The translations under genes were made by a program, and so were the position numbers. DNA of 64,000 bases from a virus: positions 42 through 64,041 of the IMG/VR virus record IMGVR_UViG_3300033757_000225; one strand, 5' to 3'. Below are positions 8,353-32,628 of the stretch, in pieces (the first letter of the stretch is position 1; each line of letters begins with the position of its first letter). Under the pieces are notes generated by a model, which was given only the letters and a program-made list of their open reading frames with translations, had not been told where the DNA came from and made no database searches.

Positions 8353-8939
8353 GATAGTCTACACTCCTCATAAAAAATCGGTCTCTTATCATTCCCTATT
8401 TGCACGATTGGAAACCCTCTTCTTGTGAAACCCGCGACCTCCCCTGCTTCACCATTGATAAGTTTTACTTCGGAGCCTTTTTCAATTTTCGCCATAGCGC
8501 GCTTTCGCCTATTCAGCATCTTCACGCTTTTGTCGGTCTTCGTATTATATTCATCCTGATATTGTTCCATCATATCAGGATGTTTTCGAATCAGCTGTAA
8601 ATACCATGCCGCCTCATAATCCATTTCGATATCGATTTCTTTTGTGTCTCTGTCCCATTGATAATTCTTATACTTTGCGCTGATTCGCTTGGCAAGCACT
8701 TCATCGAATGCGGCAAACTTTTCTATCAGTGGTTTGATTTGATAGGTTTCAATGTCTCGATCTAATTGATCGAAATATCCAGTATTTTCTTTTATTTCCT
8801 TGGTATCATCAAGCTCAAATAAGCTATTTTTCTTTCCTATATCGGCTTGTTCTGGGCTAATCCAGTATGTAACTATTCTTCCGTCAGCACGTACAATTTT
8901 TTTTGGTATCAATTTCCCATAGTCTTTCGTGGCGGTCAT
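8349..8939 (-). CDS. Accessory protein with shared N-terminal cargo-like motif and C-terminal KOW/SH3-like domain
   Basis: KLIPKKIVRADGRIVTYWISP at the N-terminus; ATGA overlaps on both sides. Confidence 0.7.
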   Translation of the reverse strand: MTATKDYGKLIPKKIVRADGRIVTYWISPEQADIGKKNSLFELDDTKEIKENTGYFDQLDRDIETYQIKPLIEKFAAFDEVLAKRISAKYKNYQWDRDTKEIDIEMDYEAAWYLQLIRKHPDMMEQYQDEYNTKTDKSVKMLNRRKRAMAKIEKGSEVKLINGEAGEVAGFTRRGFPIVQIGNDKRPIFYEECRLS

Positions 8940-10054
8940 ATGCTGCCCATTACCATGATCCCAAACTTTGAACGATTCTCTTTGAGATAATTCTCTATAT
9001 CTTTCAAATAAACCTGAATGCGCGCTCCAAAATAGGCGTTTGTCGCGCTTTGCGTGGAGCTGAAGGACTCTGAGAGGCCATCCATCGAAAGCGAAGAGGA
9101 AGAAAATCCTGCAATCAAGCCATCGCCAATGATATTGAGTAGTTTGCAGGCTGCTACCTTCCCGATAATATCCCGTAGGTCATCCGGCACTTCGGCGGCG
9201 TTTTCGAATCCAACAGTATAGTCCACCTTATAACCATGAGGATAATCCCCCGCCATCCAGGATGCTCCCAAGGTCAGCGCAGATGGAATGATGCGGAACG
9301 CATTATCGCTTCCTGCTTTTGGATAGAATGAAAGCACCCCTTTACGATGGTCAATTCTGATCCAAGGAAGCAAATTGATTATCTTTTGGTCCGCAATGCC
9401 ATAGAGCTCAAATCGCTCGACGGAGATCACCGGCCTCTTGCGCAGCACCACCCTGCCCGAACGATTCCATTTGTCATGCCGATAAGTATATGGGTCTTCT
9501 GCCTCATCATAGTCAATACCCTTTTTCAGTGTATCGCTTGGCTGGCAGACAATTTTCTTTTTTGGTATCGTGATTTTCAATGCGCGTGCCATTTCATTGA
9601 CGGCGCTGTCGATTTTATATTTAACTTGCGCATCAGTAAATAAATCGCCATTCGATGCCCTAAACTCAATTCCCCAAAGATAGGTGTACCGCAGATCATC
9701 GGTCGTCAGCACATCCCCGAAACGCCCTTCAGGAACGCTATAATTCCCAAACGTCCATCCTACTCGACTAATGCCAACCTTTACCCAATCAGAATAGACG
9801 TAATCCGTAAAATTGCCATTGGCATAGCCTGCTGCACGGTATTGATAAATTCCGTCAGCTACGTCGTAATCGGTAAACCTTGGCGAGCTTAAAAGCTGCG
9901 CCCCATTATTGGAAAAAGAAGCGCCGTCCCAAACTAACCATTCTCCCGCTTCTCGTTTACGTTCAATACGGTAGGTGGGCCAAGTTAACACCTCCGTTGA
10001 CGAAGTCAAAGCCAAGATAATATCTTTATTGGCGGGGACGGCGCTCAATTCCAT
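8936..10054 (-). CDS. Head-tail adaptor/connector
   Basis: 372 aa downstream of the capsid; RPVISVER, KVDYTVGFE..P.DL, GFSSSSLSMDGLSES pattern of SPO1-like adaptors. Confidence 0.7.
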   Translation of the reverse strand: MELSAVPANKDIILALTSSTEVLTWPTYRIERKREAGEWLVWDGASFSNNGAQLLSSPRFTDYDVADGIYQYRAAGYANGNFTDYVYSDWVKVGISRVGWTFGNYSVPEGRFGDVLTTDDLRYTYLWGIEFRASNGDLFTDAQVKYKIDSAVNEMARALKITIPKKKIVCQPSDTLKKGIDYDEAEDPYTYRHDKWNRSGRVVLRKRPVISVERFELYGIADQKIINLLPWIRIDHRKGVLSFYPKAGSDNAFRIIPSALTLGASWMAGDYPHGYKVDYTVGFENAAEVPDDLRDIIGKVAACKLLNIIGDGLIAGFSSSSLSMDGLSESFSSTQSATNAYFGARIQVYLKDIENYLKENRSKFGIMVMGSI

Positions 10055-10270
10055 TTAAAACACCTCATACCCAGGGACTTGCGCAAAATATTCAATTTCC
10101 TCTTCACTTACATCCGATGCAACACCTTCGCTATCGAATACCACCGGTTTCCCGGATATTCCGAATACGACTTGCCCTTTGCGGTCTGGATTCTTAATCT
10201 TCGTAGGGGGAATATCGGGCTTTTCAATCACATCCCCCTCTTCAGATATTGCCTTTTTAGGCCGTGCCAT
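10055..10270 (-). CDS. Small virion-associated hypothetical protein
   Basis: 71 aa, RBS GGGG, in the head operon. Confidence 0.6.
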   Translation of the reverse strand: MARPKKAISEEGDVIEKPDIPPTKIKNPDRKGQVVFGISGKPVVFDSEGVASDVSEEEIEYFAQVPGYEVF

Positions 10271-10281
10271 GTTCTACCCCC

Positions 10282-10578: not shown

Positions 10579-10595
10579 TGCATTACTCCTAGTAC

Positions 10596-10619
10596 ATCAG
10601 GGCGCTTTCGCGCCCCGAT
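10596..10619 (-). terminator. GAAA-tetraloop hairpin after major capsid gene
   Basis: GGGCGC-GAAA-GCGCCC stem; no clear U tract, so it may be an RNA stabiliser rather than a terminator. Confidence 0.45.
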
Positions 10620-10636
10620 ATAAATAAAATCACCAC

Positions 10637-12049
10637 TCAATACCAACCAAGGCTGGTATATCCGACATTCTTCACCACACCATGGTACCAGGGCACTTTC
10701 ACGTCAGGCGTTCCGAACAGCACGATCAGGAACGGCGTTACAGCGCTCTTGGTAGGATACAAGTCAAACTTCATAAGCGGCAGGAACTGATCCCACTGGA
10801 TTGACGGCTCAACAGGGTCAATCGACAGATACAGGATTTCGCCAGTGCCCGGCAGGTCTGCGTTCTGATCGAGATAAACCGTTGTAGAACTACCAGAATC
10901 CGCAATCCGCACCATCTCGCGAGTATCACTACCATCGACAGCATCTTTCTTGCTGCGGCAAATGATATAACCAGTCCCCTTGATTGATCCCGGAGTAATG
11001 GTAATCTTTACTTCCTTGCCGCCTGTAACTGCCACTGATGCCGCTGTTGCTGGATCTGAAATGCCATACTCATTGATTGCGTGTACCGTGTAGAAATAGG
11101 TTCCCGCATCATCCGTTACAAAGCCGGGGCTGCCACCACTTGATAGGTTCTGCGCTGTGAGCGCGAATGTGGGCGCAGAGGGTCTCTTGGTAACATCGCC
11201 ATTCGCAACGACATTGCCTTTCAAATGGAACATCTTGTCAGGGCCAGCTTCCTTGCCGGAAATCTTGATTGGATTCGAAAATGGAGTCGGATACTCTTCG
11301 ATGACCATTGCACCAGCGCGGTCAGCCGGATTCAGCCGCAATCTGTCTCTTGCAAGCACCTGGAAATCCTGAGCAATCATAGAAGGCATGAAGGCATGAG
11401 AAAGGTCGCCGCCGTTATCGTGCACCATGCGCGCCATTTCCGTAATCGAATCCTCACCACCCGCGTCAGTGATCTTTTTGCCGCGCAGGTCAACAAGGTT
11501 ACGACGTGAAGTGCTCGCAAGAATCTGTTTGATAACAGAATCAAACTGCACTGGCACCGCAGCGGAATCGCCATGGAACATTGCATATTCAGCGCCCTTG
11601 AGGATAGTAAGGGTTCCTGCCAGCTTCTCAGATGCAATCGCATCCTCGAGCGTTTTCGCAACCTGCATCTGGAGCGTAACCTCCCTGTAGGTCTGCAAAA
11701 ACTTCATCGGTTTTACGACGCGCTCAATGGACTGATCCGTTGCCCCAGATTCGCCGCCCTCGGCTGCAAAAATGTTTTTGTAGTCTCCGGCATCGTTTCT
11801 GCGGGTATACTCATGGATCGTTGACATTACTTTTTGCGTCTTGAGAAGATTCATGAGCTTGAAATCCTGCTTCTTTGCATCAAGAGCGGTCACAAGAGAA
11901 TTCTCAATATCCTGGGGGATCAGTGCACGCCCACCAGTCATATTCGCAGAATCGGTTCCTGCACCAGCGCTGAGTGCTTTAAGAAGGGCACCCTCGGAAA
12001 CCGATCCAAATCCAGTTTCACCAACAGCAGTCGGTTCAAAAAGGTTCAT
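10637..12049 (-). CDS. Major capsid protein
   Basis: LLKA-LSAG...GG.AL..QDIE N-terminus, STIHEY and KPMKFL motifs of SPO1/Twort-like capsids; start at 12049 fits GGAGG spacing. Confidence 0.92.
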   Translation of the reverse strand: MNLFEPTAVGETGFGSVSEGALLKALSAGAGTDSANMTGGRALIPQDIENSLVTALDAKKQDFKLMNLLKTQKVMSTIHEYTRRNDAGDYKNIFAAEGGESGATDQSIERVVKPMKFLQTYREVTLQMQVAKTLEDAIASEKLAGTLTILKGAEYAMFHGDSAAVPVQFDSVIKQILASTSRRNLVDLRGKKITDAGGEDSITEMARMVHDNGGDLSHAFMPSMIAQDFQVLARDRLRLNPADRAGAMVIEEYPTPFSNPIKISGKEAGPDKMFHLKGNVVANGDVTKRPSAPTFALTAQNLSSGGSPGFVTDDAGTYFYTVHAINEYGISDPATAASVAVTGGKEVKITITPGSIKGTGYIICRSKKDAVDGSDTREMVRIADSGSSTTVYLDQNADLPGTGEILYLSIDPVEPSIQWDQFLPLMKFDLYPTKSAVTPFLIVLFGTPDVKVPWYHGVVKNVGYTSLGWY

Positions 12050-12063
12050 TTGCATTACCTCCG

Positions 12064-13563
12064 TTACAGTGATTTCAGCATCCGCATATCCGCGTCACTG
12101 ATAGGCAGCCCTTTATTGAGCCGCTCTTCCATTACTCCCATTTCAAGCAGGGATATTTTCCCCTGCTGAACTGCTTCTCTTGCTTTTGCCATGATTTCGT
12201 CGCGCGTCATGCTTACATGCTCGCCATTGGCACCATTAAAGAAGCGCTCTTGGCGATTCAAAACCGCCTTGCGCGGGGACGGCTCTTCGGAGAGTGATTT
12301 CAGGAAAAGCCCAGTCGCGTGAACTGAGCTTCCAATCGCCTTTTGCAGCGATTCAACTCGACTGATCCTTGCAGAGAGCTCACCAATCCGATCTGAAATA
12401 GACTTGGTAAGGTCTCGCAAGAATGGAGTAACCTCAAGAAGGTCTCCATCCTCAACTTCAATTTCCTCATAGATCGACTTCTTGAGAGGCTTGGTGTTGC
12501 ATTTTTCCATGTACTCTTCATCCTCTCCCACACCCTCTTCCGACTCGAAGGGAACAGTTTTTTTCTTCTTTTTCAGCTGATCCTCTTCGCCCTCCTGTGC
12601 TTCATCTCCAGCATCTTCATCGTTTACAGGGGGGAATTCTTCATCGAATGAAGGCTGGGCCTCTTCCATCTCCTCATCTTCCGCCTTTGCTTTTTTCCCT
12701 TTGAGCCTTTTTTCGAGAGTATCAAGAGATTTCTGAAAGGCTTCCAGCAGCTTATTGTCTGCCATTTTGCTTACCTCCGTTTCCATGTGCTTGTCGTTCA
12801 AAATAGAACGCAATATTTTTTCAGCCTCAGCAGCGCTGTATCCTCGATTCATTAAAAACTCTTTTGCCTCATCGACGTCTTGTAGTTCTCCAGCAGCAAG
12901 AGCCATGACAACCGCTATTTTGTGCGGTTTGTCCTTTTTCTCATCACCTTCCAAATCTTGTGCAACCATCGCCTGGCCGCCCGTCATTCCCGCAGAGTTT
13001 GTTGCAAAGCCGGATGTCAGTGACTTCACGAACGCCGCACCAGAAAGCGCAATCGGCTCAAGCGTCTGATTGACGGGCTTGAAGGTGATTGCCAGCTCGT
13101 CCCACAATACCTTGGTGACCTTTTCTACAATCCGCCCTAATTTTTGATCCCATTCTGATACAACTTGTGGCCGGCGCCCGCCTACCGATGTTTTGAGCCT
13201 TGTCGAGCCATCTTTTAGCTTTTTAACAATGTCTTGCACGAGCGGGTTTGATTTATACAGCTTTGCTTTTACAAATGTTCCCTTCCCTACTTTATAGACG
13301 TCAATAGGCTCGCCAATGATATATTTCTCCGGAGTCCAATGCGGGTCTTCGGGATCAGCCCGTAAATGACGATGATCATAGCTGATAACGCCATTCTTGA
13401 GGAAATAGTCTTTAGAATCCAAGAGCGCTCTCTGTAAAACAATTTGACCATCGTAATCTAGGTTTTCGTTGGATGCTTCACATTCGATGATATAATTCCC
13501 ATTATCATCGGTTTCGATAGATTTTGAGAGTCGTAATTGTAGATATATTCTATCCTCGTACAT
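12064..13563 (-). CDS. Prohead protease fused to scaffold
   Basis: DYDGQIV, ISYDH (His) and TSVGG (Ser) protease motifs followed by an acidic coiled-coil scaffold; likely start MYEDRIY at 13563. Confidence 0.88.
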   Translation of the reverse strand: MYEDRIYLQLRLSKSIETDDNGNYIIECEASNENLDYDGQIVLQRALLDSKDYFLKNGVISYDHRHLRADPEDPHWTPEKYIIGEPIDVYKVGKGTFVKAKLYKSNPLVQDIVKKLKDGSTRLKTSVGGRRPQVVSEWDQKLGRIVEKVTKVLWDELAITFKPVNQTLEPIALSGAAFVKSLTSGFATNSAGMTGGQAMVAQDLEGDEKKDKPHKIAVVMALAAGELQDVDEAKEFLMNRGYSAAEAEKILRSILNDKHMETEVSKMADNKLLEAFQKSLDTLEKRLKGKKAKAEDEEMEEAQPSFDEEFPPVNDEDAGDEAQEGEEDQLKKKKKTVPFESEEGVGEDEEYMEKCNTKPLKKSIYEEIEVEDGDLLEVTPFLRDLTKSISDRIGELSARISRVESLQKAIGSSVHATGLFLKSLSEEPSPRKAVLNRQERFFNGANGEHVSMTRDEIMAKAREAVQQGKISLLEMGVMEERLNKGLPISDADMRMLKSL

Positions 13564-13577
13564 ATTCCCCCATGCAT

Positions 13578-13631
13578 AAAAAAGGCCGAATACCCCTTTT
13601 GTGGGATATCCGGCCCTCGTCTCCACTCGGC
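13578..13631 (-). terminator. Conserved leader plus intrinsic terminator, copy 1
   Basis: GCCGAGTGGAGACGAG, then a 13-bp stem GGCCGGATATCCC/GGGGTATTCGGCC, then T6; 53/54 identical to 56793..56846. Confidence 0.8.
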
Positions 13632-13707: not shown

Positions 13708-14829
13708 TCAATCAGAAAAACGCTCATGATTCAAAATTGCCCGCATCCGATCTGGATGCATCCCTCGTTGAGCCTCGATATAAGGTCTCCATTTCCTTAT
13801 TGCCGCCCATGCCTCCTCATTCTCATCCTCCCATGCTGCATTCTCGTTGCCGTGATAATAATTATATACCCGAATTGCGTATTCTGGAATCTTGGTTTCA
13901 AGCAATTCCTTTCTTCGGGCATCTTGTTTAGCTTGTGCTTCTCTTTCGGCTTCTCGCTTCTTTACCTTGATATCCTCAAGTTTATCTTTGGGAATCGACG
14001 CAATAATCTCTGATGCAAAAGGAGCCATCGCCCCTGGGCGCGTAGCCTGTGCTCTGCCATGAATTGTAACGTCGCGCCACGATAACTCTACTCCGTCTGC
14101 CTCATATTTATAGATTGGGTCGCCATCCATATCACCTGTCTGCGTAACGGTGACGGGCACATTGCCGCGTGGAATCTGCTTACGGAGCTTATCCGCCTCA
14201 GCGCGCATTTTGTCAAGCAGTAATTTTTCTTGTGCTGCCTCTTCTCCGCGTTTACCTCCCCGTTCTATTGCTTGTTTTAAGTTATTCTCCAGTGTGGCCA
14301 TTTCATACCTCTTAACAAGTGCCTGTAAATCTGGACGTGAATCTATTTTTAATGTTGGGACAACCATTGCCCCATTCACTTTTTCAGGCTTGAATCGAAC
14401 TACCTTCACGCCTCCATAATAATCCGGTACTCCGCCTTTAAGAGTCTTTCCATCGAGGGGGTTCCCTGGCGCTGATACCTGATAGGTAATGCCTTCAGCC
14501 AATAGCTTCCTATCTTCTTCACTATTCTGAGAAGACGGCTTCGCAGTAGTAGCTTGATTGCTATCAATCCCTCCCTCTTCACCTTGAGTGTCTTTTTTAA
14601 CCTCAACAACGAGCTTCGGCTTATCGGAATTTATCTTTTCTTCCAATTCCGATGTTTCAAATATATCCGGCTGCACTACCGAGGGCTTTTCATGCTGCGC
14701 CTCTTCCGGCAATACCCAAACTGTCGTCTGATATACCTTGCCATCGCGCGTAACCAGCATTTTCTTAGGTATAAGGCGTGGCGTTTTTTTCGCTTTCTCA
14801 AGAGACTCCATAAGGATATAGCTAATCAT
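13708..14829 (-). CDS. Accessory protein with shared N-terminal motif
   Basis: EKAKKTPRLIPKKMLVTRDGKVYQTTVWVLP...QPDIF; remainder unrecognised. Confidence 0.8.
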   Translation of the reverse strand: MISYILMESLEKAKKTPRLIPKKMLVTRDGKVYQTTVWVLPEEAQHEKPSVVQPDIFETSELEEKINSDKPKLVVEVKKDTQGEEGGIDSNQATTAKPSSQNSEEDRKLLAEGITYQVSAPGNPLDGKTLKGGVPDYYGGVKVVRFKPEKVNGAMVVPTLKIDSRPDLQALVKRYEMATLENNLKQAIERGGKRGEEAAQEKLLLDKMRAEADKLRKQIPRGNVPVTVTQTGDMDGDPIYKYEADGVELSWRDVTIHGRAQATRPGAMAPFASEIIASIPKDKLEDIKVKKREAEREAQAKQDARRKELLETKIPEYAIRVYNYYHGNENAAWEDENEEAWAAIRKWRPYIEAQRGMHPDRMRAILNHERFSD

Positions 14830-15044
14830 TCAAGCGTCCTCCTGCCGCGTAATAGAGCCATATATGCAGCTTGCGCTTTTGCATCGCCCCTAGCGGCGCG
14901 CACCCGTAAACGTTCGATATTACTTTGATGCTCTGGGAAAATCTCATCCTTTTTGTAGTGTATTTCCTCAGCGGATTCCATACCCTGTTTTTTGAGAGAC
15001 CGGATTCTCGCAATAACTTTCAACAATTCATTTTGCGCATTCAT
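14826..15044 (-). CDS. Small hypothetical protein
   Basis: 72 aa, ATGA-coupled to both neighbours. Confidence 0.65.
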   Translation of the reverse strand: MNAQNELLKVIARIRSLKKQGMESAEEIHYKKDEIFPEHQSNIERLRVRAARGDAKAQAAYMALLRGRRTLE

Positions 15045-18000
15045 GCAGCCACCCCTTTTACTTCCAGCCCTTTATTATACCGCTCTTGTCGTACATTCGC
15101 AATTCTTGATGCAAGTCCAGTATCATCCAAGATACCAGGGTCCTCTTCAAATATGCTTCCAAGCGCTTTTTTCCTCTGAATCCTATCCCACTTCGCCTGT
15201 TCATGCGGAGTCTTTGTCACTAGGTCAAAATAATCAATTTCACTATGGGCCTGGCCTGGCCTATCTATTCTACCCTCTCTCTGCTGTTTTACCCATGCAG
15301 TCTGTGGGAGATCGTAATTCACCAAATACGCGGCATTTTGTAAATTCAGCCCCGTTGCCCCAGCATCTGAACAAATTATTACGTCATACACTCTATCTTT
15401 CGGATTGGGCGGGTTGAATCCAACCTTCACCTCTTCTTTTTGGGCACCATTCATCGAGCCTTGAATAACGCCCACTCGCACGCCTTTCTTTTCTAGCGAT
15501 TGCCGAAGCATTGCAAGCGTGGCGAGGTTATGCGTAAAGATCACCCCAGGCTTCCTGTCTCCAGCATGTGCGTTTGTCTTTGGGTTGTCGGCCTGATATA
15601 CATTGGAGCTCACAATATCCATCAATCTCTGAACCTTCGCATTCTTGTCCCCGTCAAATTGATTCACCACGCGGTTCAGCGCCTCTTCTTTGATCACACC
15701 TGCCGATTCCTGCAAACGCTTGGCAATATCCTCATGCTTCTCTTCAGGAACGTTCCTGAAAGAATTCGGCGATAAATATTTCATGGCCTCTACATCAACA
15801 CGGCCTTCCTTCGAAGCCTTGGACGCTTGCTTGAACATCTGGAGCACCTTGTCATATTCGCTTTTCTGCTCAGGCGTCAGATCGATTTCCTCTTTATGGT
15901 CATTGCGCACGGTTCCTGTAACTGTTTTGCTGGCATAATTATAACGATCAATAAGACGCTGCAAAGAACGCTGCGAAAATTCAGGGTCTACCCCATATTT
16001 TTTCATAAATTCGTCTCGATTATTGAACTTCTTGGGATCGACTTTGTGTAGCATATCATAGGCTTCCGAAATATCATTCTTTACCGGCGTCGCCGATTGA
16101 TTCATAAAATATTCAACGTTTTGATTCAGCGCATCTACGACGTTTGCGAGTGTCGCATCTTCTTTACCTTTCCGATTCATAGTATAGTGCGATTCGTCCA
16201 CTGTCAGCATGTCAAATGATATCCCCTCTTTTTTCATGGCATCGCCCAGTGTTTTTACACGCTCGTCCGGTCTCATGGCATTGAATTTTGCTTTCATTGC
16301 ATTGTCATCAAGCCCATTGTTCCTTGCCATGATATGTATGAGATCATCCCGCAAGCTTTGATGCGTCATAACTACCATATCGAGATTTCCGTCTTTTAAT
16401 GCCTGTATGCGTTCTTCTCTCGATAGCCCAGGATCGGATTTCACACGATATTTCCCTGGCTTGCAGAATACATTGACCTCATTCCCAAATTGCGCTTGTA
16501 CAACCGATGGAACCGCAAATATGGCTCGTTTCGCTTTTCCTTTATCTTTGAGTGTCGTAAAGCTCGCTATGGAAATGATTGTTTTCCCCTTTCCGGTACC
16601 AAAGGTAAGATTCATGCGCTTGGCAACCTCGAACATTTTGATTGCGCGTTGCCGCTCTCCCTTGGTATTCATACTTGCAACTGCATATTTTTGCCCGCGT
16701 CTTTGATTGACGGCAATCTGTGGCACGATGGAGGCAAGCTGCTGCTCAGCTCGTTGGCCAATGGAGATTTTCTCGCTCCCATCATTCTGCTTTAACTCTT
16801 CACCGCCAAACATTTCAAGCTGTGCTGCGTCTTCTTTCCGCTTTTGCTCCAAATATTCAATAGCCTTTTCTTTCCACGAACCAGCTGCAAATTTACCGCG
16901 TTCACGATTCGCAACCGTTGCTCCCGCACTTGCAAGCTCTGCCTGAACTTTATCAATAAAAGAATCGCGCACATCCTTATGGAGCATGCCCAGCACATGA
17001 TCTTTCCAGTTCCGGATTTTCTCAACTTTAGTATGTAAATGTTTTTTTGTAACACGCCCATAATTCTTGACAAACTTCTCTATAAATTCGCCTTTCGCAA
17101 TATCAAGCACGGCAGCATGTGCACGCTCGACATCGCCATGCATGCGCACATATTCACCCCATGGGCTTTTCTCTTTCCGTTCCGCTCCGGCCTCGAATTG
17201 TACCTCGGTATAACCCGACATGAATTTCAAATAATGATCGCGCATCTGGGTTTCGTACAGTTCAGTCAGTTTTTCCGGCAATTCCTTTTCGAGCTTTTCA
17301 GCCTCGCGGCTCGCTGCATCCGCATCAATAACAAGATCAGGATCACGTAAATCATCAATCTGTTGAAAAAGTTCTTCCGCACCATCGACATTCCCTCTGT
17401 ATGTTTCCCATTGCCCTGGTACAACTTTCGTTAATGGCGGAATATCCTTTTCTCCGAACATATCTTCGAAGGAATGATTTTCAATTAAATCATTACGAAT
17501 GAGCTCTAATGCAATATTCTTATCTCCAGCACACTTCCCCCTGAGAAACTGCATCCACGCGCCCTGTCGCGATATCGCTTCTCCGCCTATATTTTGCATA
17601 TCCTGCGTGGCGGTTTGCTCGGCCATAGAACCCTTGTAGATATTCTTCTCCCAATACCGACGCAAATCAGCCTGATCCTCTGGTGTCAAATCTTCAACAG
17701 CCTTGAAAACAAATCTGCCTTCAGGCATTTCACCAAGCGTCCGGTGCACTGCCTCTTCGGTCTTCGCGATTTCGTCGGCATTATCGGCCAATGACTGATT
17801 TTCGATACTATCGGCTGCATATTCGGCATCTGGCCCAGGGTCGGTAAAGCTGTCCGTCTCTCTGCGCACCAAACCAGGCGGCATCCAACCGTCCTCGTCC
17901 TCAAGCCCCGCTTTGATCTGGGAAACCCTGTTTTCGATAGCAATATCCTCTTTGCTTTTGGTAGGAAGTAATTTTTGCGGCGTATGTATTGTGGCGATTT

Positions 18001-19971: not shown

Positions 19972-22900
19972 TCAGTCATCCAATAATCTAAAGGACTTCA
20001 AGAGCTCTTCATTCTCTGCAAAAAACCGCTCTACCAATGGAAGTATCTTAGACTTGTAAGTCTCTTCTTGTACATAAATTGACTTGTTTTTATCAAAAAG
20101 CAAATTCAACTTGCCATTTTTCAGCATATAATATTCCTCAAGAGCTCGCGCAAAACATTCGCAAGTACGATTGATATAGATCGATGTTTGCGGTCGCATC
20201 ATTTTCTCTCGGAATGTGCGCGCAATCTGCCCAGGCAGCGAAGACCAGTTATCAGATGCAAATTGGTACCTTCCCGTCTGCAATGCAAGATAGTGATCCA
20301 TGAAGTGCGCCCACTCGTGTGCAAGCGTCATTCCGCCTAAATCCCTGCCAGCCTTAAACGTAACTCCAATAGCATGATAATTGGGTATAAAGATTCCAGA
20401 TGCGTTACGAGCATGCATGAGCACCTGCCCAGAATGGCTGATTTTCAGTCCGAATTTCCGCGCCATTGATGCACGATTGCCAAATACGGCATAGACATCA
20501 TCAAGCGCTTTCCGAATATCGTCAATTTCTTTCTGAGTAATCGCGTCGCCATTCTGTCGTTTTACCAACACCCCATATTGATCAAGCAAATCGGGCTTCG
20601 TTCCTTTATCTCCATAGGCAGTCTCCCTCCCCTTCGAAAATACAGAATAGTTCTCTTCCAACTGAATATTCATATCGTCGAGCTTTTGTTTCAAGTCTTT
20701 GATCGCATCAGTAACGGGCTTAAAGCGTTCATTCCCGCGAAGATTCAAGAATGTTTCAGCTAATAGGATATTTCTTGTTGTTACGCGCTTATCGCTGATA
20801 ACGGTAAGGCGAGGCATTTTGAGCCTACTAGCATATTCTTTGAATTCTTTTATTTTCTCCTCATACCATTGTCTATGCAATGCCTTTGCTCGTTTCAAGT
20901 AATAATCTTGGGTGGCCGCAAGGACATCAAGGTTGACTACCGCATATCCATTACTGGTATTTATGGCATAGGAATTATCATCCAGTTTTATTGCCTCTAC
21001 TCGATATTGTTGGACCCTAAAAGCATAATCCTGAATTTCTGGTATCCATGAAGGACGCTTTTTATCAAGAATATTTTTTTCAGTCACCAGGCTAATCCTT
21101 GAAGGAATAACATCCCGATAATCAAGGCCGGTTTTACCTTTTATTAGTTCCACCACCTTCGGCGTAAATTCATATTCCGGCATTGACGCCTGGCCGAAAT
21201 TTACCCCCATAAGCGATGCAGTAATTGCGGCGCGATTTTCAGGCCCCGCGCTGCTTATGAGCCTATGGATCGCTTCGGCTGCTTCGACAGGAAAAATCTC
21301 ATCAATCGACTCAAGTGGCGCATGCTCCCCATTTTCCAAATCAACAACGCCATCAGAGACTTTGAGAATCTTGGAAGTTTTATATCCGTTTTCGCTTTTG
21401 TATCGAATTGCAGTACCCGCTGTAAGATTCTTTACGATATTTGTTATTCCCGATTGACTATAATCATCATCAGTAAAAAGCTCCCCCTGCTGTTTGTTTT
21501 CTTCATCTTGCCGAACCCATACGCGCATTGAAAACACAGATCCGCCCCTGTGTACCGTCTGCTGAATAGGCACAAGTCCAGGCGTTATTTTTGCCTTTTC
21601 AAAGTGATCTCCCGTCATCGCTTTTACAACATATTTTTGCCCTTTGACAAACTTATCCTTTTCAGCAATTTCGATATGGTATTTTTTTGCGGCACGCATA
21701 ATCCTGTTCCAGATAGCGCGGCGCTGATCGGGATCATACTTGCTATAATTGCGCGGCATTGAGAAATATGCCATAGCTGCCAGTACATGCTCCTCTGTAT
21801 CGAGCGGATATTTGTAATTATTCGGATCGGCGTATTCTTTTTTCTCTTCAGGATAGCCTTTTGGGGGAGTTTTGTGAGAATATTCTGTATCTCCGGCTTC
21901 GGGAAGCGCCTTTCTCGTTCTATTCGCCTGCTCGGTTAGATTATAGCTTTCAATAGCATCTTTTCTTCCTGGCATCATAACAGCGCCATTTGGTGTAATA
22001 ATCCAATCTGGACCTCCATCCTCATTATAGAACTTGAGTAATGCCCACCAATCTGGATTATCATAGGCACCAGCCGTATCAACAATATCCCTGGGAGCAA
22101 ATGCCTGCCGAACTTCACGCTCAAAAGTATCAAATGAGACCTCATCTTCATCTGTTGCGGCGCTTATATCATTGTATATTGTTTCAATCAGGTCTCTGTC
22201 TTCCTGATTCAGCTCGTCTTTTTTATATAATTCCCAAATCCCATGCAATTTTTCGATAAACCGATTCATGTCTTCGCTGTGCTCGTTAAAAAAATCGGCA
22301 ACGGTGGCATGCGCCGAAGGTTTTGCCAGCCACACACTTCCACCATTCCCCGCATAGGACTTTGCTGTATCAATATTCGTGCTGAACAGAGTGGGCCATT
22401 CATCATTCCCATACTCTTTCCCTGGCCTTCTCCCGTGCACATACATTCCATCCGGCAAAGGCACTTCTCCATCCAACAGTTTCTCAGCAAATTCTTTACT
22501 CTTAAAATTGTTTTTTGTCTTTACTGGCTTATTATCTTTATCTGGACGCACCCATTTCTCGGCTCTATATACCTTCCCCATGCGAGTGACCAGAATGGGC
22601 TTTTTCACTAATTTTGCACGATTGATCGCTTTGCTGATAAAGCCGCGCTTCTCTTTTGCATGTTGCATGTCAGCATGATCTACGATATACTTATCTGATA
22701 TGGAGGACTTAGCAATGGATTCTCCCGACTTTGATTCATTGAGATTTTTCGAGCTTGACGATACACCATTTGCGAGAGACCCAAAATCTTGGAACCTCTT
22801 TAGAGTTCGCTCTGAAAGCCAGCTTGAACCGTGCGACTCCAAAATATTTGCTGACATTTTCCAGAATGGCAGAGAAATATCCAAGAAGGAAGCGCTCAAA

Positions 22901-23715
22901 TTGGCCGCATCCCGATGGCCCGAAGAAACCTCCCAGGCGAATTGATAGATTCTTTTCTGCGCCAGGATCGCATAATGATATGGCGCAGGCGGTGGTGGTG
23001 GCGGAATCTGCCCTTCCGCTTCCCGTGTTATTTCATAGAATAGGTGTCCATATTTTTCTTTCGCTTCAATCATTGCCTTCGTATTCAGCTGTATTTCTGA
23101 AATCATCCCGTTTGGCAGTTTGACATTGATATTTACTCCCCGATACCCCGCCAGTGTCGGTGTCGCATAGTAATTCTTTATTCTGATTACGCGAGGGTCT
23201 TTCATGAAATAGTCAAGCGCCTTACCAATCCCCTCCAGATTATCAAACACAAGGGTGTGCCCATCGATATCATAGATCATGCTGGCATCGGTCGCGCCAT
23301 CTTCGGCCATTTTTTCTTTGACCCGTTCACGATTTTTTAGAGTGGGCCTCGACAATAATTCGCTTGCTCCGAGCTCGTCCTTGAGCTTCTCCATCACCGC
23401 GCGAAAATCGCCCCGAACCGCTTCGGCCATCTTATAAAGCTCATCAATATCACCCGTCGGCTGTACCATATCCTTTCTGGGACAATCCTTTTTATTGTTA
23501 GGGTCAAACAGCCGCTTAACCACATCATTTTCTGGAGCATTATTCCTCTCGTTTTTCGGATATTCCCCAGTGAGGATTTTCATATTCGTTGGCTTTGGCT
23601 CATCGATTCCTGGGCGCACCCATCTATGCTGCTGAAATGTTTTGCCGTCGCGCGTAATTGTGACAGGTTTTTTTACAAGTCTGCTCGTGTCAAGCGCCTT
23701 CACTACCAGCATCAA
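19972..23715 (-). CDS. Polyvalent protein: RelA/SpoT-like nucleotidyltransferase + ART-like + DUF6582-like + zincin peptidase/LPD
   Basis: LK, D..G, GYRGVN, EIQLNT, H.FYE (RelA/SpoT); HG...FST....A.SYA (ART); YADP.NYKYPLDTEEHV (DUF6582-like); HEWAH and CFARALE (metallopeptidase/LPD1-like). Confidence 0.85.
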   Translation of the reverse strand: MMLVVKALDTSRLVKKPVTITRDGKTFQQHRWVRPGIDEPKPTNMKILTGEYPKNERNNAPENDVVKRLFDPNNKKDCPRKDMVQPTGDIDELYKMAEAVRGDFRAVMEKLKDELGASELLSRPTLKNRERVKEKMAEDGATDASMIYDIDGHTLVFDNLEGIGKALDYFMKDPRVIRIKNYYATPTLAGYRGVNINVKLPNGMISEIQLNTKAMIEAKEKYGHLFYEITREAEGQIPPPPPPAPYHYAILAQKRIYQFAWEVSSGHRDAANLSASFLDISLPFWKMSANILESHGSSWLSERTLKRFQDFGSLANGVSSSSKNLNESKSGESIAKSSISDKYIVDHADMQHAKEKRGFISKAINRAKLVKKPILVTRMGKVYRAEKWVRPDKDNKPVKTKNNFKSKEFAEKLLDGEVPLPDGMYVHGRRPGKEYGNDEWPTLFSTNIDTAKSYAGNGGSVWLAKPSAHATVADFFNEHSEDMNRFIEKLHGIWELYKKDELNQEDRDLIETIYNDISAATDEDEVSFDTFEREVRQAFAPRDIVDTAGAYDNPDWWALLKFYNEDGGPDWIITPNGAVMMPGRKDAIESYNLTEQANRTRKALPEAGDTEYSHKTPPKGYPEEKKEYADPNNYKYPLDTEEHVLAAMAYFSMPRNYSKYDPDQRRAIWNRIMRAAKKYHIEIAEKDKFVKGQKYVVKAMTGDHFEKAKITPGLVPIQQTVHRGGSVFSMRVWVRQDEENKQQGELFTDDDYSQSGITNIVKNLTAGTAIRYKSENGYKTSKILKVSDGVVDLENGEHAPLESIDEIFPVEAAEAIHRLISSAGPENRAAITASLMGVNFGQASMPEYEFTPKVVELIKGKTGLDYRDVIPSRISLVTEKNILDKKRPSWIPEIQDYAFRVQQYRVEAIKLDDNSYAINTSNGYAVVNLDVLAATQDYYLKRAKALHRQWYEEKIKEFKEYASRLKMPRLTVISDKRVTTRNILLAETFLNLRGNERFKPVTDAIKDLKQKLDDMNIQLEENYSVFSKGRETAYGDKGTKPDLLDQYGVLVKRQNGDAITQKEIDDIRKALDDVYAVFGNRASMARKFGLKISHSGQVLMHARNASGIFIPNYHAIGVTFKAGRDLGGMTLAHEWAHFMDHYLALQTGRYQFASDNWSSLPGQIARTFREKMMRPQTSIYINRTCECFARALEEYYMLKNGKLNLLFDKNKSIYVQEETYKSKILPLVERFFAENEELLKSFRLLDD
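22663..22691 (+). promoter_or_regulatory. Internal antisense sigma70 promoter
   Basis: TTGCAT (22663-68), 17 bp, TATACT (22686-91), followed by GGAGG (22702-06) and ATG (22715). Confidence 0.7.
22715..22945 (+). CDS. Embedded antisense small protein, candidate immunity/antitoxin for the RelA/SpoT domain
   Basis: 76 aa MDSPDFDSLRFFELDDTPFARDPKSWNLFRV...GREISKKEALKLAASR with own promoter and RBS; the host frame here is Ser-rich low complexity, as expected for a shadow. Confidence 0.65.
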   Translation: MDSPDFDSLRFFELDDTPFARDPKSWNLFRVRSESQLEPCDSKIFADIFQNGREISKKEALKLAASRWPEETSQAN

Positions 23716-23729
23716 CCACCCCCAGCTTT

Positions 23730-27100: not shown

Positions 27101-29643
27101 TTAACTTCATAGGTTTTCGTAGGAGCGGCAATATAGTTATTGAATGTTTTATTGTAAAGCAATTCTATTTGATCTCGGACATTTTCGTGGTTTGCAACCC
27201 ACTGAAGGAAGTTGTCCAGCGTCTTTCTATTGTACGCTTCCGTATCATTGTATTTCGAGCGCTGCTTTTGATTATTCAAGAAGTAGATAACGGGGTCTGC
27301 GAGCTCTAACCATGACCCTTCAGGTGTAACCTCTGTTTCTCCGGTTTCTCTGTTATAATTGTAATAGTTTCTTTCTGCAATAGCCCCCCATTTCCCAGTC
27401 TCTTTATTCCGCGCTACCTGTTTAATTTCACGCCCATATATGCCGCGATTAAGTGTGTTCAGCCCATCTTCTGCATGTATCCAGTCATTGATAATACTTT
27501 CCGGTATCCAGGAGGACTGTGGACTGAATTGCGCATCTTCGATTGGCGTCCATTTAATCGCCTTCTGTATTTCTTGAATACCATACTCCCATTTTTTGCG
27601 TTCCTTCTCCCACTTCTCATCAGGGTGGCTATCAATGGCATCTTTGAGGGCTTGTATCTTCTCCCATACCTCCCCTGAGATAAAATCTTCGCGCAATTCG
27701 TAAGAGCCTTCCGGTGTAAGGAATACATCTTTGTGCTCCATCATTTGCGTAATCAGTGATTCCGCTTCATTCGGAAAATAATGGCGGACATTATCAACCG
27801 TTGCCTCCACCATGTTTTTCTGTAGCGTCAGCAATGCGTCAATAACCGGATCATTCCCGTTGAAGACTTCGATATTTTTTTCGTAGATATTCGGCTTTGT
27901 GAGGACGTCAGCATCAATATTCAAGAGCCCCTCGTATACCCCCGCAACCGCTGCATGTTCACGGAGCACTCTTCGAATGTCCTTATCTTCAGCCGGAGTG
28001 GTGTTATATTTCTTCTCATATTCTTGTATCAGCGAGCGTGCGTTCATTTGCAGCTCATCAACCGGTTTGCCTGCCTGCATGTTTTCGCGTATGGTTTGTA
28101 CAATACTGGCAATCGCAGTGACTTTCTGCATCTTCTCGGCAGCGATTTCACTCGCGGAGGGTACAAGCTCCCATCTGTGATTCTCATTCAGTCGGTACAA
28201 TCTTCCATTCTCGCTCTTCGTCATGCCGACGGTTAATGTTTTTGCGGCGATAGCATCTGCTTCGCTTTCCGTCACCCGCATAATGCGTGGCACTTCCGTT
28301 GGTACTTCGCCTGCATCACTTTCTTGCATAGCAATATTTGCAAGCCGAGACGCATCATCGGTTGTTTTTTCGGGCTCGATCTTTATATCTTTGACAAGCT
28401 CATCCAGCACTTCGGGCGTGAGATCGCCCTGTACAACATCGCTTCCCCAGTTTCCCTTACCTTCTAGCACATCGCCAATAACGTTTTGCTCATATGTCCC
28501 ATTCACCCATGCATCATGCCAAAATCCCGATTTCTGCATTTCCTCATCCGAAATGGCCGCAAGCTGTTTTGCGATTGCGTCTGGATATTTTCGGAAAAGC
28601 AAAATAATTGGCTGCACGGCTGTTTGTGTGTGCTTGAATGACTTATTGGGCAGCTTCACCGCTCCCATGAATTGCGCTTGACGAATTATCTGAGCTCTCC
28701 AGTCGCGTGAGAGATTATTCTCAAGTACACCAGGATGCACAATCATTGCCAATACGCCGCCCTGTGCAAGGTTATCGATTGACCGCGAAACGAAATACCG
28801 ATCCAGGCTCTTTTCCTCTGGCATATCAATAAAACTCGTCTCAACGGATCGATCCCCAAATGGCGCATTGCCAATCACATATTCGAATTTATCTTGATTG
28901 TATAGGTTGAATACTTCATAGCTTGTTGGTTTTATTGCCACGTCCGGCTGAAGAATGGCCGCCACCGCAGCCGATCGCGCATCTAGTTCAACGCCCGTGC
29001 ATTTTACCTCTTTCGGCGCCACATCAAAGAATACCCCCGTTCCACATGAGGGCTCCAACACTTTATCTTCAGGCTGAATCTTGCGAATCTTGTTCATAAT
29101 CTGCCACATGGCGCGCGCGAGTGGCGGAGATGTGTAAAAATCATAGAGCACGCCGCGCTCGTCTGCCTGAATACCACCAAAACCAGAATATCGGCGTATT
29201 TTCTCTTTATCTTCTTCGGTGATAGTGTCCCTTCGCTTGGTCACCAGGTCGGCCACTTCCGCATTGATCTTTTCTCGTTCCTTGACACCGAGATGCTTGC
29301 CGTTCGAGCTCCATGAACCATAATCTCGGAATTGAGTGTCTTTTATTGGCTTTGCCAGTGGTACTATAGAGCTCGTTTCGCGCGCAGTCTGCCGTTCCTG
29401 TTCTTTATCCTTGATATCCCCTGCCTCTGGCTGCTCGGTTTCATCCTCATCTTGAAACAAATCGGGTTGCACCATGGAATAAGATTCTTTTTTTATCTCG
29501 GAAGGTAGAACCCATACGCGCTTTTGGAATATCGTTCCATCGTCATTGCGCACAGTAATGATTTTCGGCACCAAGCGCGGACTACGCCGTGCTTTCTCAA
29601 TCTGTGCTTTCGCGTTTTGTAGTATTTTGCGCATAAACAACAT
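24103..29643 (-). CDS. DarB-like N6-adenine methyltransferase + SNF2 helicase
   Basis: 1846 aa; VLEPSCGTGVF (motif I), VIGNAPF (motif IV variant), GTGFGKT, DEAHNYKN, GEGVNLQ, QRNGRVDRQG. Confidence 0.9.
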   Translation of the reverse strand: MLFMRKILQNAKAQIEKARRSPRLVPKIITVRNDDGTIFQKRVWVLPSEIKKESYSMVQPDLFQDEDETEQPEAGDIKDKEQERQTARETSSIVPLAKPIKDTQFRDYGSWSSNGKHLGVKEREKINAEVADLVTKRRDTITEEDKEKIRRYSGFGGIQADERGVLYDFYTSPPLARAMWQIMNKIRKIQPEDKVLEPSCGTGVFFDVAPKEVKCTGVELDARSAAVAAILQPDVAIKPTSYEVFNLYNQDKFEYVIGNAPFGDRSVETSFIDMPEEKSLDRYFVSRSIDNLAQGGVLAMIVHPGVLENNLSRDWRAQIIRQAQFMGAVKLPNKSFKHTQTAVQPIILLFRKYPDAIAKQLAAISDEEMQKSGFWHDAWVNGTYEQNVIGDVLEGKGNWGSDVVQGDLTPEVLDELVKDIKIEPEKTTDDASRLANIAMQESDAGEVPTEVPRIMRVTESEADAIAAKTLTVGMTKSENGRLYRLNENHRWELVPSASEIAAEKMQKVTAIASIVQTIRENMQAGKPVDELQMNARSLIQEYEKKYNTTPAEDKDIRRVLREHAAVAGVYEGLLNIDADVLTKPNIYEKNIEVFNGNDPVIDALLTLQKNMVEATVDNVRHYFPNEAESLITQMMEHKDVFLTPEGSYELREDFISGEVWEKIQALKDAIDSHPDEKWEKERKKWEYGIQEIQKAIKWTPIEDAQFSPQSSWIPESIINDWIHAEDGLNTLNRGIYGREIKQVARNKETGKWGAIAERNYYNYNRETGETEVTPEGSWLELADPVIYFLNNQKQRSKYNDTEAYNRKTLDNFLQWVANHENVRDQIELLYNKTFNNYIAAPTKTYEVKIDGWNPNITLGKHQWQTIHHLYRQGKGISALGTGFGKTLAAIGLVGILRQEGKARRVMIQVPNNKVKDWVKAFGKAMPKLKVRAVDPETKGYGDQVKRYAMYQDIANSDSDVIILPESAASEIQLSPEHDDELTEEFVQDQVVETAKMSARKKEIAKEKARSSLHGGKKNKTITFEDFGADALVVDEAHNYKNLFVSSLSREVGMNDGRRSDRAMSLFKKSMYLQKQKDGKNVFMLTATPLTNSPLEYYNMLMHIAPEELKRLGLKTIDDFISNFADITVGPKYEWASGEVKEGKILKGFRNLQALQNIFFKYTDLQNDPDAIGLKKPSANNVPHILPKEEQQADVIKGLAKEVENYRNMDSEQREKSFPGQNFLTFYAKLRTASLDLELYNPHKYKGWVNPKLETLAQNAYESYKSTGGGQVIFCDRVLSGDGSFNMHEKIKQRLIAQGFTDSEIVIVNGLTKSGTMQSDQALEREVSQAIDGYNSGKYKVIIGTTQTLGEGVNLQKNSAALHHLDIPFRPSDFTQRNGRVDRQGNKQDKVALHTYMAAGTIDSYSIALVQGKANWIDQLLKTKSNIFFNPNDGSYIDADELLLALTQEFGGEEAVRQKREEIQKQKTEALQKANLEKVHSLLGAYSTLRYAVRTFNGDKGSIAFQNRMRKLREIEDTLRSNPEFKHLDLLDDDAPDFVYQKDTKTVYRMGDMLTFKRLGGAFKVVGIDHKTNTLQLQQLLQGIDGPDTASIKLDSEDASRRYYASGEEMHRNHFARPSETDIAKFQSLGNINEFIKQDKEFKEQNFDTLFYTLPSKSQYSDSARVPYFVTESYSNSLKGIVRGNELYGSLLNPYKKEDQETILSSMKDVDNMDDTAANILDNPVYLDAMGEELKKTAKEVYDHSKEKPLIEQAVKNANGEWVRLDDFVTEKERAGYLDWRASRTIPVLLKYAQKYEFAKDLRPNDWAELYFREKQNAEMAKSFNGYRLVIRYKGSRTRIKGVRHVL

Positions 29644-29654
29644 CGTGCACCTTC

Positions 29655-30941: not shown

Positions 30942-30945
30942 ACAC

Positions 30946-32628
30946 CTACATTACATATCTGCCCAACCTTGCCAGGTAGGATTTCCAATTCTTTCCTTCA
31001 GGGGCAGTAAGATAGTCGAGAATGATATGGTCCGGATTACCATTTGCTTTATTCTTATCCGCCCATGCAGAGGCATCCTCTTTCAACCGCTTAACTATAT
31101 CCTCATGCTCCGCAATGTTGTCTGCAAATCTATCCGGCGGCACAATATCAAAAAAATCACGCACGCTCATTTTTCTAATACCGTCACCACCAACCGAGGT
31201 GGACTCAGTAGAGCTCTCGCGAGCTGATTGGTTCTTCTTATTCATGGCCGCAACATATTCCTTTACGACCTCATCCGACCTTCCCACTTTATCATTCTCA
31301 TATGCCCATTTCGCTGCGGCAAGCCGGAACTTGTCGATATCATCATATTTTCTGCTTCCAGCGTAATTCGACATACGGGCGCTATCCATATCCAAGATAT
31401 CGCGTACTGTCTCATCAGTATTCTTTGGTGGCCCTATCGTCTTCCTTCCTTCAAAAGTCGTGTCCTCAAAGGGCAACTTCTTGCCATTAGCATCTAAGTG
31501 CCTCGCATCCGTTTTTTGCGTCCGCACACCGCCTTCTTTTCTTGTATACTTTTCAATCCGATATGGGCCAAACGAAATGCTATCTATATTCGGCGTGTTT
31601 TCCAGCTCTTCCATTGCATCGAGTATCTTTGTGGCGTCTGTTTCACTCACATCCATTCCGTGCACATCACTTGCGTCAAGTTTGTCATTTTCATCACTGT
31701 AATCATATCCAATCTTCATTGGCTTGTCGTTTATGTAAACACGAAAAGACTGCATTATAAAATCTTTTGCGTGTTTAGGTTTAGCATCTCCCGCATTCGT
31801 ATCTTTGCTATAAGCCTTTTCGTAGAATGATTTATCCGCCAAAATATCATTTTCGACCTTTTCTTGCTCTTCTTTTGCGGTTGAACTGTATTGTGGAAAA
31901 TTGATTTTAGCAAAGGCATAATGCGTATCACCGGCAATACGCAATTTATAATCCGGCTCTCCAAATCGCACAAGTTCCGCATTACCGCGCCCTACCTGCC
32001 TCAGCAAATCTTTATATTCAGCGTCGGTAATAACTTCTTTGTTTTCCGAATTGATTATCTTTTTCTGCGCCGGATCAAAAACATATTGAATTTTAGCCGA
32101 CTTCCGTTCGCCAGGAATCTGGATCATGATTTTTTTATTAGGCATTTTTTTCGGGAATTCATCCAAATATTGCAAAAAATCTCTTATATTGCTACCATAT
32201 CTTTTGCTATAATTATCAACTTCAATTTTCTGTCTCAGCTTTCTCCCGCGTTCACTCTTTGGACCACCAGGTAACGTAAACAATTCCCCATTTATTTTTG
32301 TTAATCCAGCCTCTCGCAATTCCTCATTATCAGCTTCTTGCCTGGGCTGCTTTGCGCCTGTTTCTTTTGCTGTCGTAGTATGGACAGACTCATTGCTATA
32401 AGGATCACCATCAAATAAGTCACCTTGTGCAATCGTTATTTTTTGACTGTTCGCCTCTTCTGGCAAAACCCATGCCCAGCGCTGATACGGCTTCGTTTCC
32501 CCATGAACGGTAATCAATTTGCGCACAAGTTTCGGATTGTGCCTGGCTTTGAGAAATGCAACGTCAAGCGCACCAAGTTGCACAAATAGCCGTGGTATAG
32601 CTCGGAATATTATTTTACTCATACACAT
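30946..32628 (-). CDS. Accessory protein with shared N-terminal motif
   Basis: FLKARHNPKLVRKLITVHGETKPYQRWAWVLP...QGDLF; remainder unrecognised; start may be 32622. Confidence 0.8.
   Translation of the reverse strand: MCMSKIIFRAIPRLFVQLGALDVAFLKARHNPKLVRKLITVHGETKPYQRWAWVLPEEANSQKITIAQGDLFDGDPYSNESVHTTTAKETGAKQPRQEADNEELREAGLTKINGELFTLPGGPKSERGRKLRQKIEVDNYSKRYGSNIRDFLQYLDEFPKKMPNKKIMIQIPGERKSAKIQYVFDPAQKKIINSENKEVITDAEYKDLLRQVGRGNAELVRFGEPDYKLRIAGDTHYAFAKINFPQYSSTAKEEQEKVENDILADKSFYEKAYSKDTNAGDAKPKHAKDFIMQSFRVYINDKPMKIGYDYSDENDKLDASDVHGMDVSETDATKILDAMEELENTPNIDSISFGPYRIEKYTRKEGGVRTQKTDARHLDANGKKLPFEDTTFEGRKTIGPPKNTDETVRDILDMDSARMSNYAGSRKYDDIDKFRLAAAKWAYENDKVGRSDEVVKEYVAAMNKKNQSARESSTESTSVGGDGIRKMSVRDFFDIVPPDRFADNIAEHEDIVKRLKEDASAWADKNKANGNPDHIILDYLTAPEGKNWKSYLARLGRYVM

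Follow-up and report, generated by a model that had tools for sequence, protein, structure and literature searches.

The window analysed here comprises 64,000 nucleotides (positions 42 to 64,041) of the IMG/VR virus record IMGVR_UViG_3300033757_000225 and represents nearly all of this 64,688-bp record, which carries direct terminal repeats. The late genes lie on the minus strand, and several of the proteins encoded among the head genes share a module of approximately 45 residues, composed of a leader, a putative protease site and a predicted β-hairpin, which is the subject of this report. The late genes concerned are the following (aa, amino acids):

34269-35870, minus strand: large terminase (TerL)
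32632-34272, minus strand: portal
30946-32628, minus strand: 560-aa protein
29655-30941, minus strand: MuF-like protein
24103-29643, minus strand: DarB-like N6-methyltransferase/SNF2 protein, 1846 aa (PHROG and Pfam)
23730-24113, minus strand: Ulx-like protein, following the DarB-like gene
19972-23715, minus strand: polyvalent protein, 1247 aa, with RelA/SpoT, DUF6582 and a C-terminal HExxH domain
15041-19957, minus strand: SNF2 helicase, 1638 aa
13708-14829, minus strand: 373-aa protein
12064-13626, minus strand: prohead protease (phrog_1028, head maturation protease) with an acidic C-terminal part that is scaffold-like, as judged from its sequence
10637-12055, minus strand: SPO1/SU10-type major capsid protein (MCP)
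8349-8939, minus strand: 196-aa protein, among neck and tail genes

A first-pass annotation had proposed that a motif headed by Lys-Ala (KA) recurs at the N-termini of five of these proteins and twice more within the polyvalent protein. Using a regular expression and alignment, we recovered seven copies, all on the minus strand and at the positions given in that annotation. A profile built from the seven copies found no further match in a six-frame translation of the window (next best E-value 0.23). The window copies are mutually 38-46 % identical, with one Leu and one Trp invariant. As a check on circularity, the profile was rebuilt from 181 copies of other phages, with all window proteins excluded; this external-only profile returned six of the seven window copies across four head-module genes, with E-values of 3.6e-19 to 1.2e-11. 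The module itself is real. The copies are listed below, with an arrow marking the putative cut:

32446..32559, minus strand: N-terminus of the 560-aa protein (residues 24-61), E 1.2e-11; FLK↓A site at 32539-32556
29488..29604, minus strand: N-terminus of the DarB-like protein (residues 14-52), E 7.2e-12; IEK↓A site at 29584-29601
23599..23712, minus strand: copy 1 of the polyvalent protein, at its N-terminus ahead of RelA/SpoT, E 1.1e-17; VVK↓A
22528..22641, minus strand: copy 2 of the polyvalent protein, internal (residues ~359-396), after a Ser-rich linker, E 1.1e-12; ISK↓A
21493..21609, minus strand: copy 3 of the polyvalent protein, internal (residues ~703-741), between DUF6582 and the C-terminal HExxH domain, E 2.6e-12; FEK↓A
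14692..14805, minus strand: N-terminus of the 373-aa protein (residues 9-46), E 3.6e-19; LEK↓A site at 14785-14802
8841..8939, minus strand: degenerate copy at the N-terminus of the 196-aa protein, here without leader or KA, E 0.52 alone

The internal copies score as high as the N-terminal ones. The copy in the 196-aa protein had already been described as degenerate, and we count it because the orthologues of this protein in three related phages (L015-L017) possess the complete module, with full leader, K[AS], hairpin and QADLF. The Pfam and PHROG results bear out that the carriers are otherwise unrelated proteins (in the polyvalent protein, Pfam RelA_SpoT at residues 126-221 and DUF6582 at 625-686, and phrog_22901 at 758-1241), and four of the five carrier genes do lie between portal/MuF and the prohead protease. 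The nearest kin of each window copy is a copy in another phage (51-74 % identity) rather than a paralogue in the window (41 % or less), which indicates old copies passed on together with their cargo and maintained under long-term purifying selection.

The module is widespread, occurring in hundreds of other phages. When run against 1.84 billion protein representatives, the seven-copy profile, a hidden Markov model (HMM), returned 209 matches at E≤1e-3, 25 of these at E≤1e-10; the copy counts given below refer to the best 150 of the 209 matches together with the window proteins (154 proteins, 190 copies). The anchor Leu of a copy falls within the first 60 residues in 119 of the 154 proteins, and polyvalent proteins of 1000-2250 residues carry two to four copies, including internal ones at domain junctions. 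This search had been suggested in the first-pass annotation, which reasoned that hits mostly to non-virion proteins would speak against a capsid role; the informative genomic contexts retrieved were all phage head or cargo-gene regions. A near-consensus copy used as query matched 13 cultured-phage records and returned zero matches among 72,556 plasmids.

More than 30 effector domain families were found downstream of the module. They include InPase, several ADP-ribosyltransferase (ART) families, Zeta toxin, RelA/SpoT, LPD1/LPD3, NUDIX, topoisomerase I and SAM lyase, as well as PI3/4- and HipA-like kinases, M90/ATLF-like peptidases, 2H phosphoesterases, ParB_N, RadC and MuF_C, and this cargo repertoire is that of the phage-type 'polyvalent proteins'. 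No close relatives of the window were found in the phage collection or IMG/VR by DNA or with the 373-aa protein, and relatives were eventually reached via the capsid protein. These close relatives preserve the gene order of the window, and in them the module heads every protein of the cassette except the MuF-like and Ulx-like proteins, with diverged copies in the DarB-like proteins. One relative (L008) encodes RelA_SpoT and then InPase as separate genes, each with its own header, while the RelA/SpoT unit of the window is joined with other units, the headers being retained. The module also occurs in six genes of L014, a phage that differs from this one in capsid and portal family. In L012, the capsid protein of which is unclassified, two copies are found at the junctions of a polyprotein of 1512 residues (P0105, L012 4108-8646), in which a lambda-type portal is combined with a 2H phosphoesterase or ligase-like unit. 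Among cultured phages, the Thermus Lalka phages have the hairpin in their DarB-like protein.

In its extended form, the consensus runs from a hydrophobic stretch through [LIM]-[EQL]-K-[AS] and five or six further residues to a core of L-[VI]-[PK]-K-K-[VI]-T-V-x-R-G-G-K-T-[FY]-Q-x-T-x-W-V-x-P, followed by acidic residues. The leader is short, variable and hydrophobic, or is replaced by a preceding domain, and the basic hairpin typically reads L-V-P-K-K-V-T-V-x-R-G-G-K-T-F-Q-x-T-x-W-V-x-P-x-E. It is this hairpin, and not the protease-type site, that is most conserved. AlphaFold2 (AF2), supplied with an alignment of 145 copies, predicted a two-stranded β-hairpin (strands 25-32 and 38-45, pLDDT 85-92), flanked by a low-confidence helix over the leader and a short helix after the hairpin. 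Neither the module profile, searched against PDB sequences, nor the AF2 model, submitted to Foldseek, returned anything meaningful, and a feature search of the ESM Atlas with the module gave no usable match. No model in Pfam, PHROGs or NCBIfam covers the motif except an internal stretch of phrog_1917, and the module appears to be undescribed in Pfam, NCBIfam and the literature searched.

The acidic linker contains a second, less frequent element. The pentapeptide Q-x-D-[LIM]-F is present at a fixed offset, 11-12 residues past the hairpin, in 37 of the 190 copies, and these account for most of the 45 occurrences of the pattern in 96,763 residues (all proteins examined). In other phages it often takes the form QLDLF, QFDLF or QLDMF. 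Three instances are found in the window:

32413-32427, minus strand: QGDLF in the 560-aa protein
29455-29469, minus strand: QPDLF in the DarB-like protein
14659..14673, minus strand: QPDIF in the 373-aa protein (13708..14829)

The binding motif of the β sliding clamp is Q-phi-x-[L/M]-[F/L], with QLDLF as the tightest-binding consensus (PMC11139829). The external QLDLF and QFDLF forms fit this consensus; QPDIF, QPDLF and QGDLF fit it less, as their position 2 is the non-aliphatic Pro or Gly.

The stretch of phrog_1917 mentioned above provides a link to a protein located on the phage head. This family is a core 'virion structural protein' of the Herelleviridae, with its gene directly after that of the large terminase, and it contains the hairpin at profile positions ~77-115, with K-G-G ahead of it. 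Bacillus phage YungSlug gp74 matches the module HMM with an E-value of 1e-11, and in the opposite direction one of the module proteins (P0085) matches phrog_1917 profile positions 77-167, the common part being the hairpin region only; the window proteins gave no match to the phrog_1917 profile. With the Brochothrix member as tblastn query, relatives were recovered from 522 phage records. Staphylococcus phage A3R ORF059, also a member, has been located on the phage head by immunogold electron microscopy (PMC8236893; also noted in GenBank). Like the module carriers, phrog_1917 bears the hairpin, and it is a head-associated protein; it differs in being one conserved gene with a GNAT-like C-terminal part, as opposed to a portable header on many cargos.

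The second component of the module, the KA site, was examined in relation to the prohead protease. A hydrophobic-x-K-[AS] pattern (h-x-K-[AS]) stands 4-14 residues before the anchor Leu in 142 of the 190 module copies. The same pattern, as [LIVMF]-x-K-[AS], is about fivefold enriched in the protease-scaffold protein: its 520 residues contain 11 instances, eight of them in the scaffold part, where the late genes as a whole would lead one to expect 2.4 (P 4e-5). In four relatives, this protein has 10-12 occurrences, mostly L-E-K-[AS], which is the exact form seen in the module. The capsid protein contains a single h-x-K-[AS], at residues 24-27, and this is conserved in relatives. The 373-aa and 560-aa cargo proteins likewise have one each, within the module. 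In L028, which has the same capsid and protease type, VIHK↓ALEAG is found in the capsid protein, ELNK↓AIN in the scaffold and LLK↓AK at cargo N-termini. Two sites in the window stand out:

13018..13032, minus strand: FVK↓SL, at the protease/scaffold junction of 12064..13626
11972..11986, minus strand: LLK↓AL, residues 24-28 of the major capsid protein, a putative maturation site

The capsid protein reads GALLK↓ALSAGAGTDSANMTGGRALIPQD at this point and the protease-scaffold junction reads AAFVK↓SLTSGFATNSAGMTGGQAMVAQD, both segments being nearly identical in relatives. Together they form a near-duplicate of ~28 residues, running from residue 26 of the capsid protein (11900-11986, minus strand) and from residue 201 of the protease-scaffold protein (12950-13032, minus strand), with the consensus K↓[AS]-L-x-[AS]-G-x-[AG]-T-[DN]-S-A-x-M-T-G-G-x-A-[LM]-[IV]-x-Q-D. 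In effect, the scaffold part opens with a mimic of the capsid segment that follows K26.

Because the pattern is both enriched in the scaffold and present once near the N-terminus of the capsid protein, we read KA as a probable prohead protease site, as the first-pass annotation had supposed. The distribution of the K↓[AS] pattern is what would be expected of a prohead protease that degrades the scaffold, trims the capsid protein and cuts cargo precursors. In HK97, gp5 is cleaved after Lys103. As a check on the K↓A site, we looked for reports of where the N-termini of SPO1- or Twort-type capsid proteins are processed and found none in the literature searched. If the protease does cut at K↓A, two consequences follow: the cargo would be inside the prohead while the protease is active, and the hairpin would remain at the new N-terminus, the opposite of the T4 arrangement. 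The portal also has a sole h-x-K-[AS], RVGK↓AIDDDD (residues ~530-533; 32674-32685, minus strand), which is located 14 residues from the C-terminus and represents a possible trimming site.

Further sequences of interest were noted in the window and in other phages. The start of the helicase 15041..19957, reading 'KA..IPAGARWITVHPNG', had been put forward as a distinct variant of the motif. We rejected this candidate, as it is undetected by every profile. The helicase instead begins with a separate N-terminal domain of ~50 residues (RWITVHPNG...PVLIQ...GTAHVIAGAGG...LKLNKIKS), strongly conserved and found only in orthologues of that helicase, and no Pfam or PHROG model lies over it:

19583..19801, minus strand: helicase L-R-K↓A site followed by the RWITVHPNG...GTAHVIAGAGG domain; not a module copy

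The MuF-like protein reads RALAK↓ALDIPITVKRKDDDEK near its N-terminus (30780-30860, minus strand), and its relatives read SLAK↓AMGVPLTVRQRERERGEKFVY; this stretch resembles a very degenerate header and is below significance with every profile. In L028, a cargo protein (3349-4248) starts with MAILYSAIELLK↓AKAASQGEVRVRKDGISWKKVGKTWVPEKK, which looks like a strongly diverged header with shifted Trp positions. The hairpin of the DarB-like protein of Thermus phage Lalka27a (L019 8749-9100) is located at residues ~83-113 and is preceded by a Pro/Ala/Lys-rich leader with a tandem repeat (...PKPKPQ..PTLWEAA.. twice). Apart from the module, one relative (L009 14287-17868) has a diversity-generating retroelement (Mtd_N, bAvd and reverse transcriptase) just downstream of the cargo cassette, and an element of this type was annotated in the window at 52613-55504 in the first pass. 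A scan of genome contigs for the host returned only two contigs, both of metagenome-assembled genomes.

From the distribution of the module and its predicted fold, we infer a role in the phage head. We give an even chance to the reading that the module is the header of capsid-carried cargo units, consisting of a probable prohead-protease site and a β-hairpin adaptor. In this scheme, the effector units encoded among the head genes, which evolved independently of one another, would each be preceded by a header, and the tagged proteins would enter the prohead. The prohead protease (12064..13626) would then cut at K↓A, removing the leaders and separating the units of the polyvalent protein, and each mature unit would start with the hairpin, by which it might be held on a common partner in the head until it exits with the DNA. 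The address-label function proposed in the first-pass annotation is thus retained in part. The presence of a portable header on unrelated cargo, its restriction to phage head-module genes and the location of a phrog_1917 member on the head are consistent with a label; the retention of the hairpin after a cut at K↓A and its conservation across unrelated capsid and portal families are not what such a label would lead one to expect.

Several further points weigh against the header reading. The cleavage at the Lys site is a prediction from sequence statistics, and the zincin domain of polyvalent proteins offers an alternative processing enzyme (PMC5512222). The module is near-identical in phages with differing capsid and portal families (L012 and L014), and an address label would serve no purpose in the portal-fused polyprotein P0105. 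The capsid-targeting peptides known so far are specific to their phage and are removed by cleavage; the hairpin here would remain. Neither of two HMMs of the module matches P1 DarB, and we therefore rejected the P1 DarB N-terminus as a homologue of the module. Finally, the hairpins of Staphylococcus and Enterococcus phrog_1917 members are degenerate and match the profile weakly (5-6 bits), so the immunogold link runs via family membership, and ORF059 was called 'exposed' on the head (PMC8236893), a position that is not necessarily internal.

The conservation of the module across unrelated heads, together with the portal fusion, means that a less specific partner (DNA or a host protein, for example) fits at least as well as a capsid component. 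We regard DNA or a host protein met after injection as a serious rival to a partner in the head, or as an additional function. In its specific form, which we consider unlikely, the hairpin and Q-x-D-L-F would act after delivery or on DNA, the hairpin binding DNA (that of the packaged or of the entering genome) and the pentapeptide docking the effector on the β sliding clamp of the host, so that injected enzymes would be brought to DNA or to the replisome. A universal partner of this kind is what the strong conservation over unrelated capsid and portal families points to; the hairpin is rich in Lys and Arg and is followed by an acidic, apparently disordered linker, many of the 37 pentapeptides at the fixed offset (among 190 copies) have QLDLF-type forms, which fit the clamp consensus (PMC11139829), and in P1 the head-internal DarA/Hdf pair touches DNA (PMC12810830). 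However, only about a fifth of the copies have Q-x-D-L-F, with Pro or Gly at position 2 in the three window instances, and many cargos (ARTs, Zeta toxin, kinases and pyrophosphatase) have no obvious need of DNA or a clamp. Pfam, the PDB sequence search and Foldseek showed no kinship to known DNA-binding domains, and the confinement of the module to head-module genes and its adjacent protease-type site are left unexplained, though this reading is compatible with both.

A combination of the two is also conceivable, if rather improbable: a universal header that binds packaged DNA and/or, via Q-L-D-L-F, the host clamp, keeping effectors with the genome inside the capsid and positioning them, on arrival, at DNA or the replisome, with the prohead protease freeing one headed unit per effector domain. 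A receptor common to all carriers was sought in the Ulx-like and MuF-like proteins and rejected, since L012, L014, L028 and the Herelleviridae have the module without a detectable Ulx-like gene.

The module could alternatively be mainly a processing cassette, in which the hairpin is a docking or spacing element for the prohead protease or zincin, and entry into the head is provided by MuF, Ulx-like proteins or portal fusion. This would account for the conservation of h-x-K-[AS] in 142 of 190 copies and for the copies at the junctions of polyvalent proteins and in the portal-fused polyprotein, where no label is needed. It also agrees with the zincin-mediated processing of polyvalent proteins proposed by Iyer et al. 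(PMC5512222) and with the role of Ulx in the localization of P1 DarB (PMC9024508), given that a Ulx-like gene follows the DarB-like gene here. Nevertheless, we think it quite doubtful: the scaffold and capsid sites conform to the pattern but lack a hairpin, so none is required by the protease; some N-terminal leaders are only 2-6 residues long, such that cutting gains little; and it is the hairpin and not the site that is most conserved. Anchoring on the capsid exterior by the hairpin, in the manner of a decoration protein, is very improbable, as the carriers include DarB-like and polyvalent effectors of 1200-2200 residues, their counterparts in P1 are head-internal and function in the infected cell (PMC9024508, PMC12810830), the neighbouring protease-type site implies that the carriers are exposed to the inside of the prohead and immunogold labelling cannot tell intact from damaged particles.

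How anti-defence and host-takeover enzymes are selected for loading into the head is known for two model phages only, T4 and P1 (DarB), and both signals are short and phage-specific. The module described here can be read from sequence and flags probable head-carried cargo in hundreds of uncultured phages; it delimits the functional units of giant polyvalent proteins and predicts a prohead protease specificity, after Lys and before Ala or Ser. The carriers available in culture are a Bacillus SPO1-like phage, the Thermus Lalka phages and staphylococcal Kayviruses. Should the hairpin suffice for loading, it would make a practical tag for phage-mediated protein delivery; should it bind DNA or the sliding clamp, many effectors would share a post-injection targeting step. 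Under the combined, universal-header reading, the tag would be transferable among many phages for the loading and delivery of arbitrary proteins.

Three known systems are reminiscent of the arrangement in the window. The phage-type polyvalent proteins (PMC5512222) match the carriers in domain repertoire, including ART-PolyVal, MuF_C and the DarB-type methyltransferase-helicase, in being encoded among head genes and in the proposal that they are processed into units. The protein 19972..23715 combines several unrelated effector domains in a TerL/portal-to-MCP gene context, and we count the carriers as genuine members of this class or as single-domain relatives of them. The survey assigns processing to the zincin domain, whereas the evidence presented here points to the prohead protease; this header or junction module does not appear in its main text, from 2017, nor is it covered by any Pfam LPD model.

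The first 30 residues of P1 DarB are sufficient to target it to the capsid, and Ulx assists in DarB localization (PMC9024508). DarA and Hdf have been placed on the inner capsid surface, touching DNA; since DarA residues 1-69 lack density, and in view of earlier biochemistry, the authors of the cryo-EM structure infer that the prohead protease removes the DarA N-terminus (PMC12810830). The window resembles P1 in encoding a DarB-like methyltransferase-SNF2 protein and then a Ulx-like protein near the portal, with the module at the N-terminus of the former, which is where P1 DarB has its targeting signal. The resemblance does not extend to the sequences themselves. P1 DarB is not detectably related to the header (tblastn alignments of the window DarB-like protein to P1 begin at residue 123), no DarA or Hdf homologue was detected, and the P1 authors found no common consensus among the Dar N-termini (PMC9024508), whereas a single header is present here on at least four cargo genes.

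The T4 capsid-targeting sequence (CTS) is carried by the internal proteins IPI-III and Alt and is removed by the gp21 prohead protease (summarized in PMC9024508). As in T4, a portable N-terminal peptide is common to unrelated proteins (119 of 154 carriers; four window genes with unrelated domains) and adjoins a putative prohead-protease site, and T4 cargo is head-internal and delivered with the DNA. The T4 CTS is ~10 residues long, is limited to T4-like phages and lies upstream of a cut after Glu, by which it is removed. By contrast, the module is a 30-residue β-hairpin downstream of a putative cut after Lys; with the candidate h-x-K↓[AS] site upstream of the hairpin, only the leader would go and the hairpin would stay on the mature protein. 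The module is also found at internal positions and is kept across unrelated head types, which sets it apart from the T4 CTS as described. The two have no known similarity in sequence, although no T4 CTS sequence was compared with the module here. While it belongs to neither family by sequence, the closest counterparts of the module in function are, by analogy, the T4 CTS and the P1 DarB signal.

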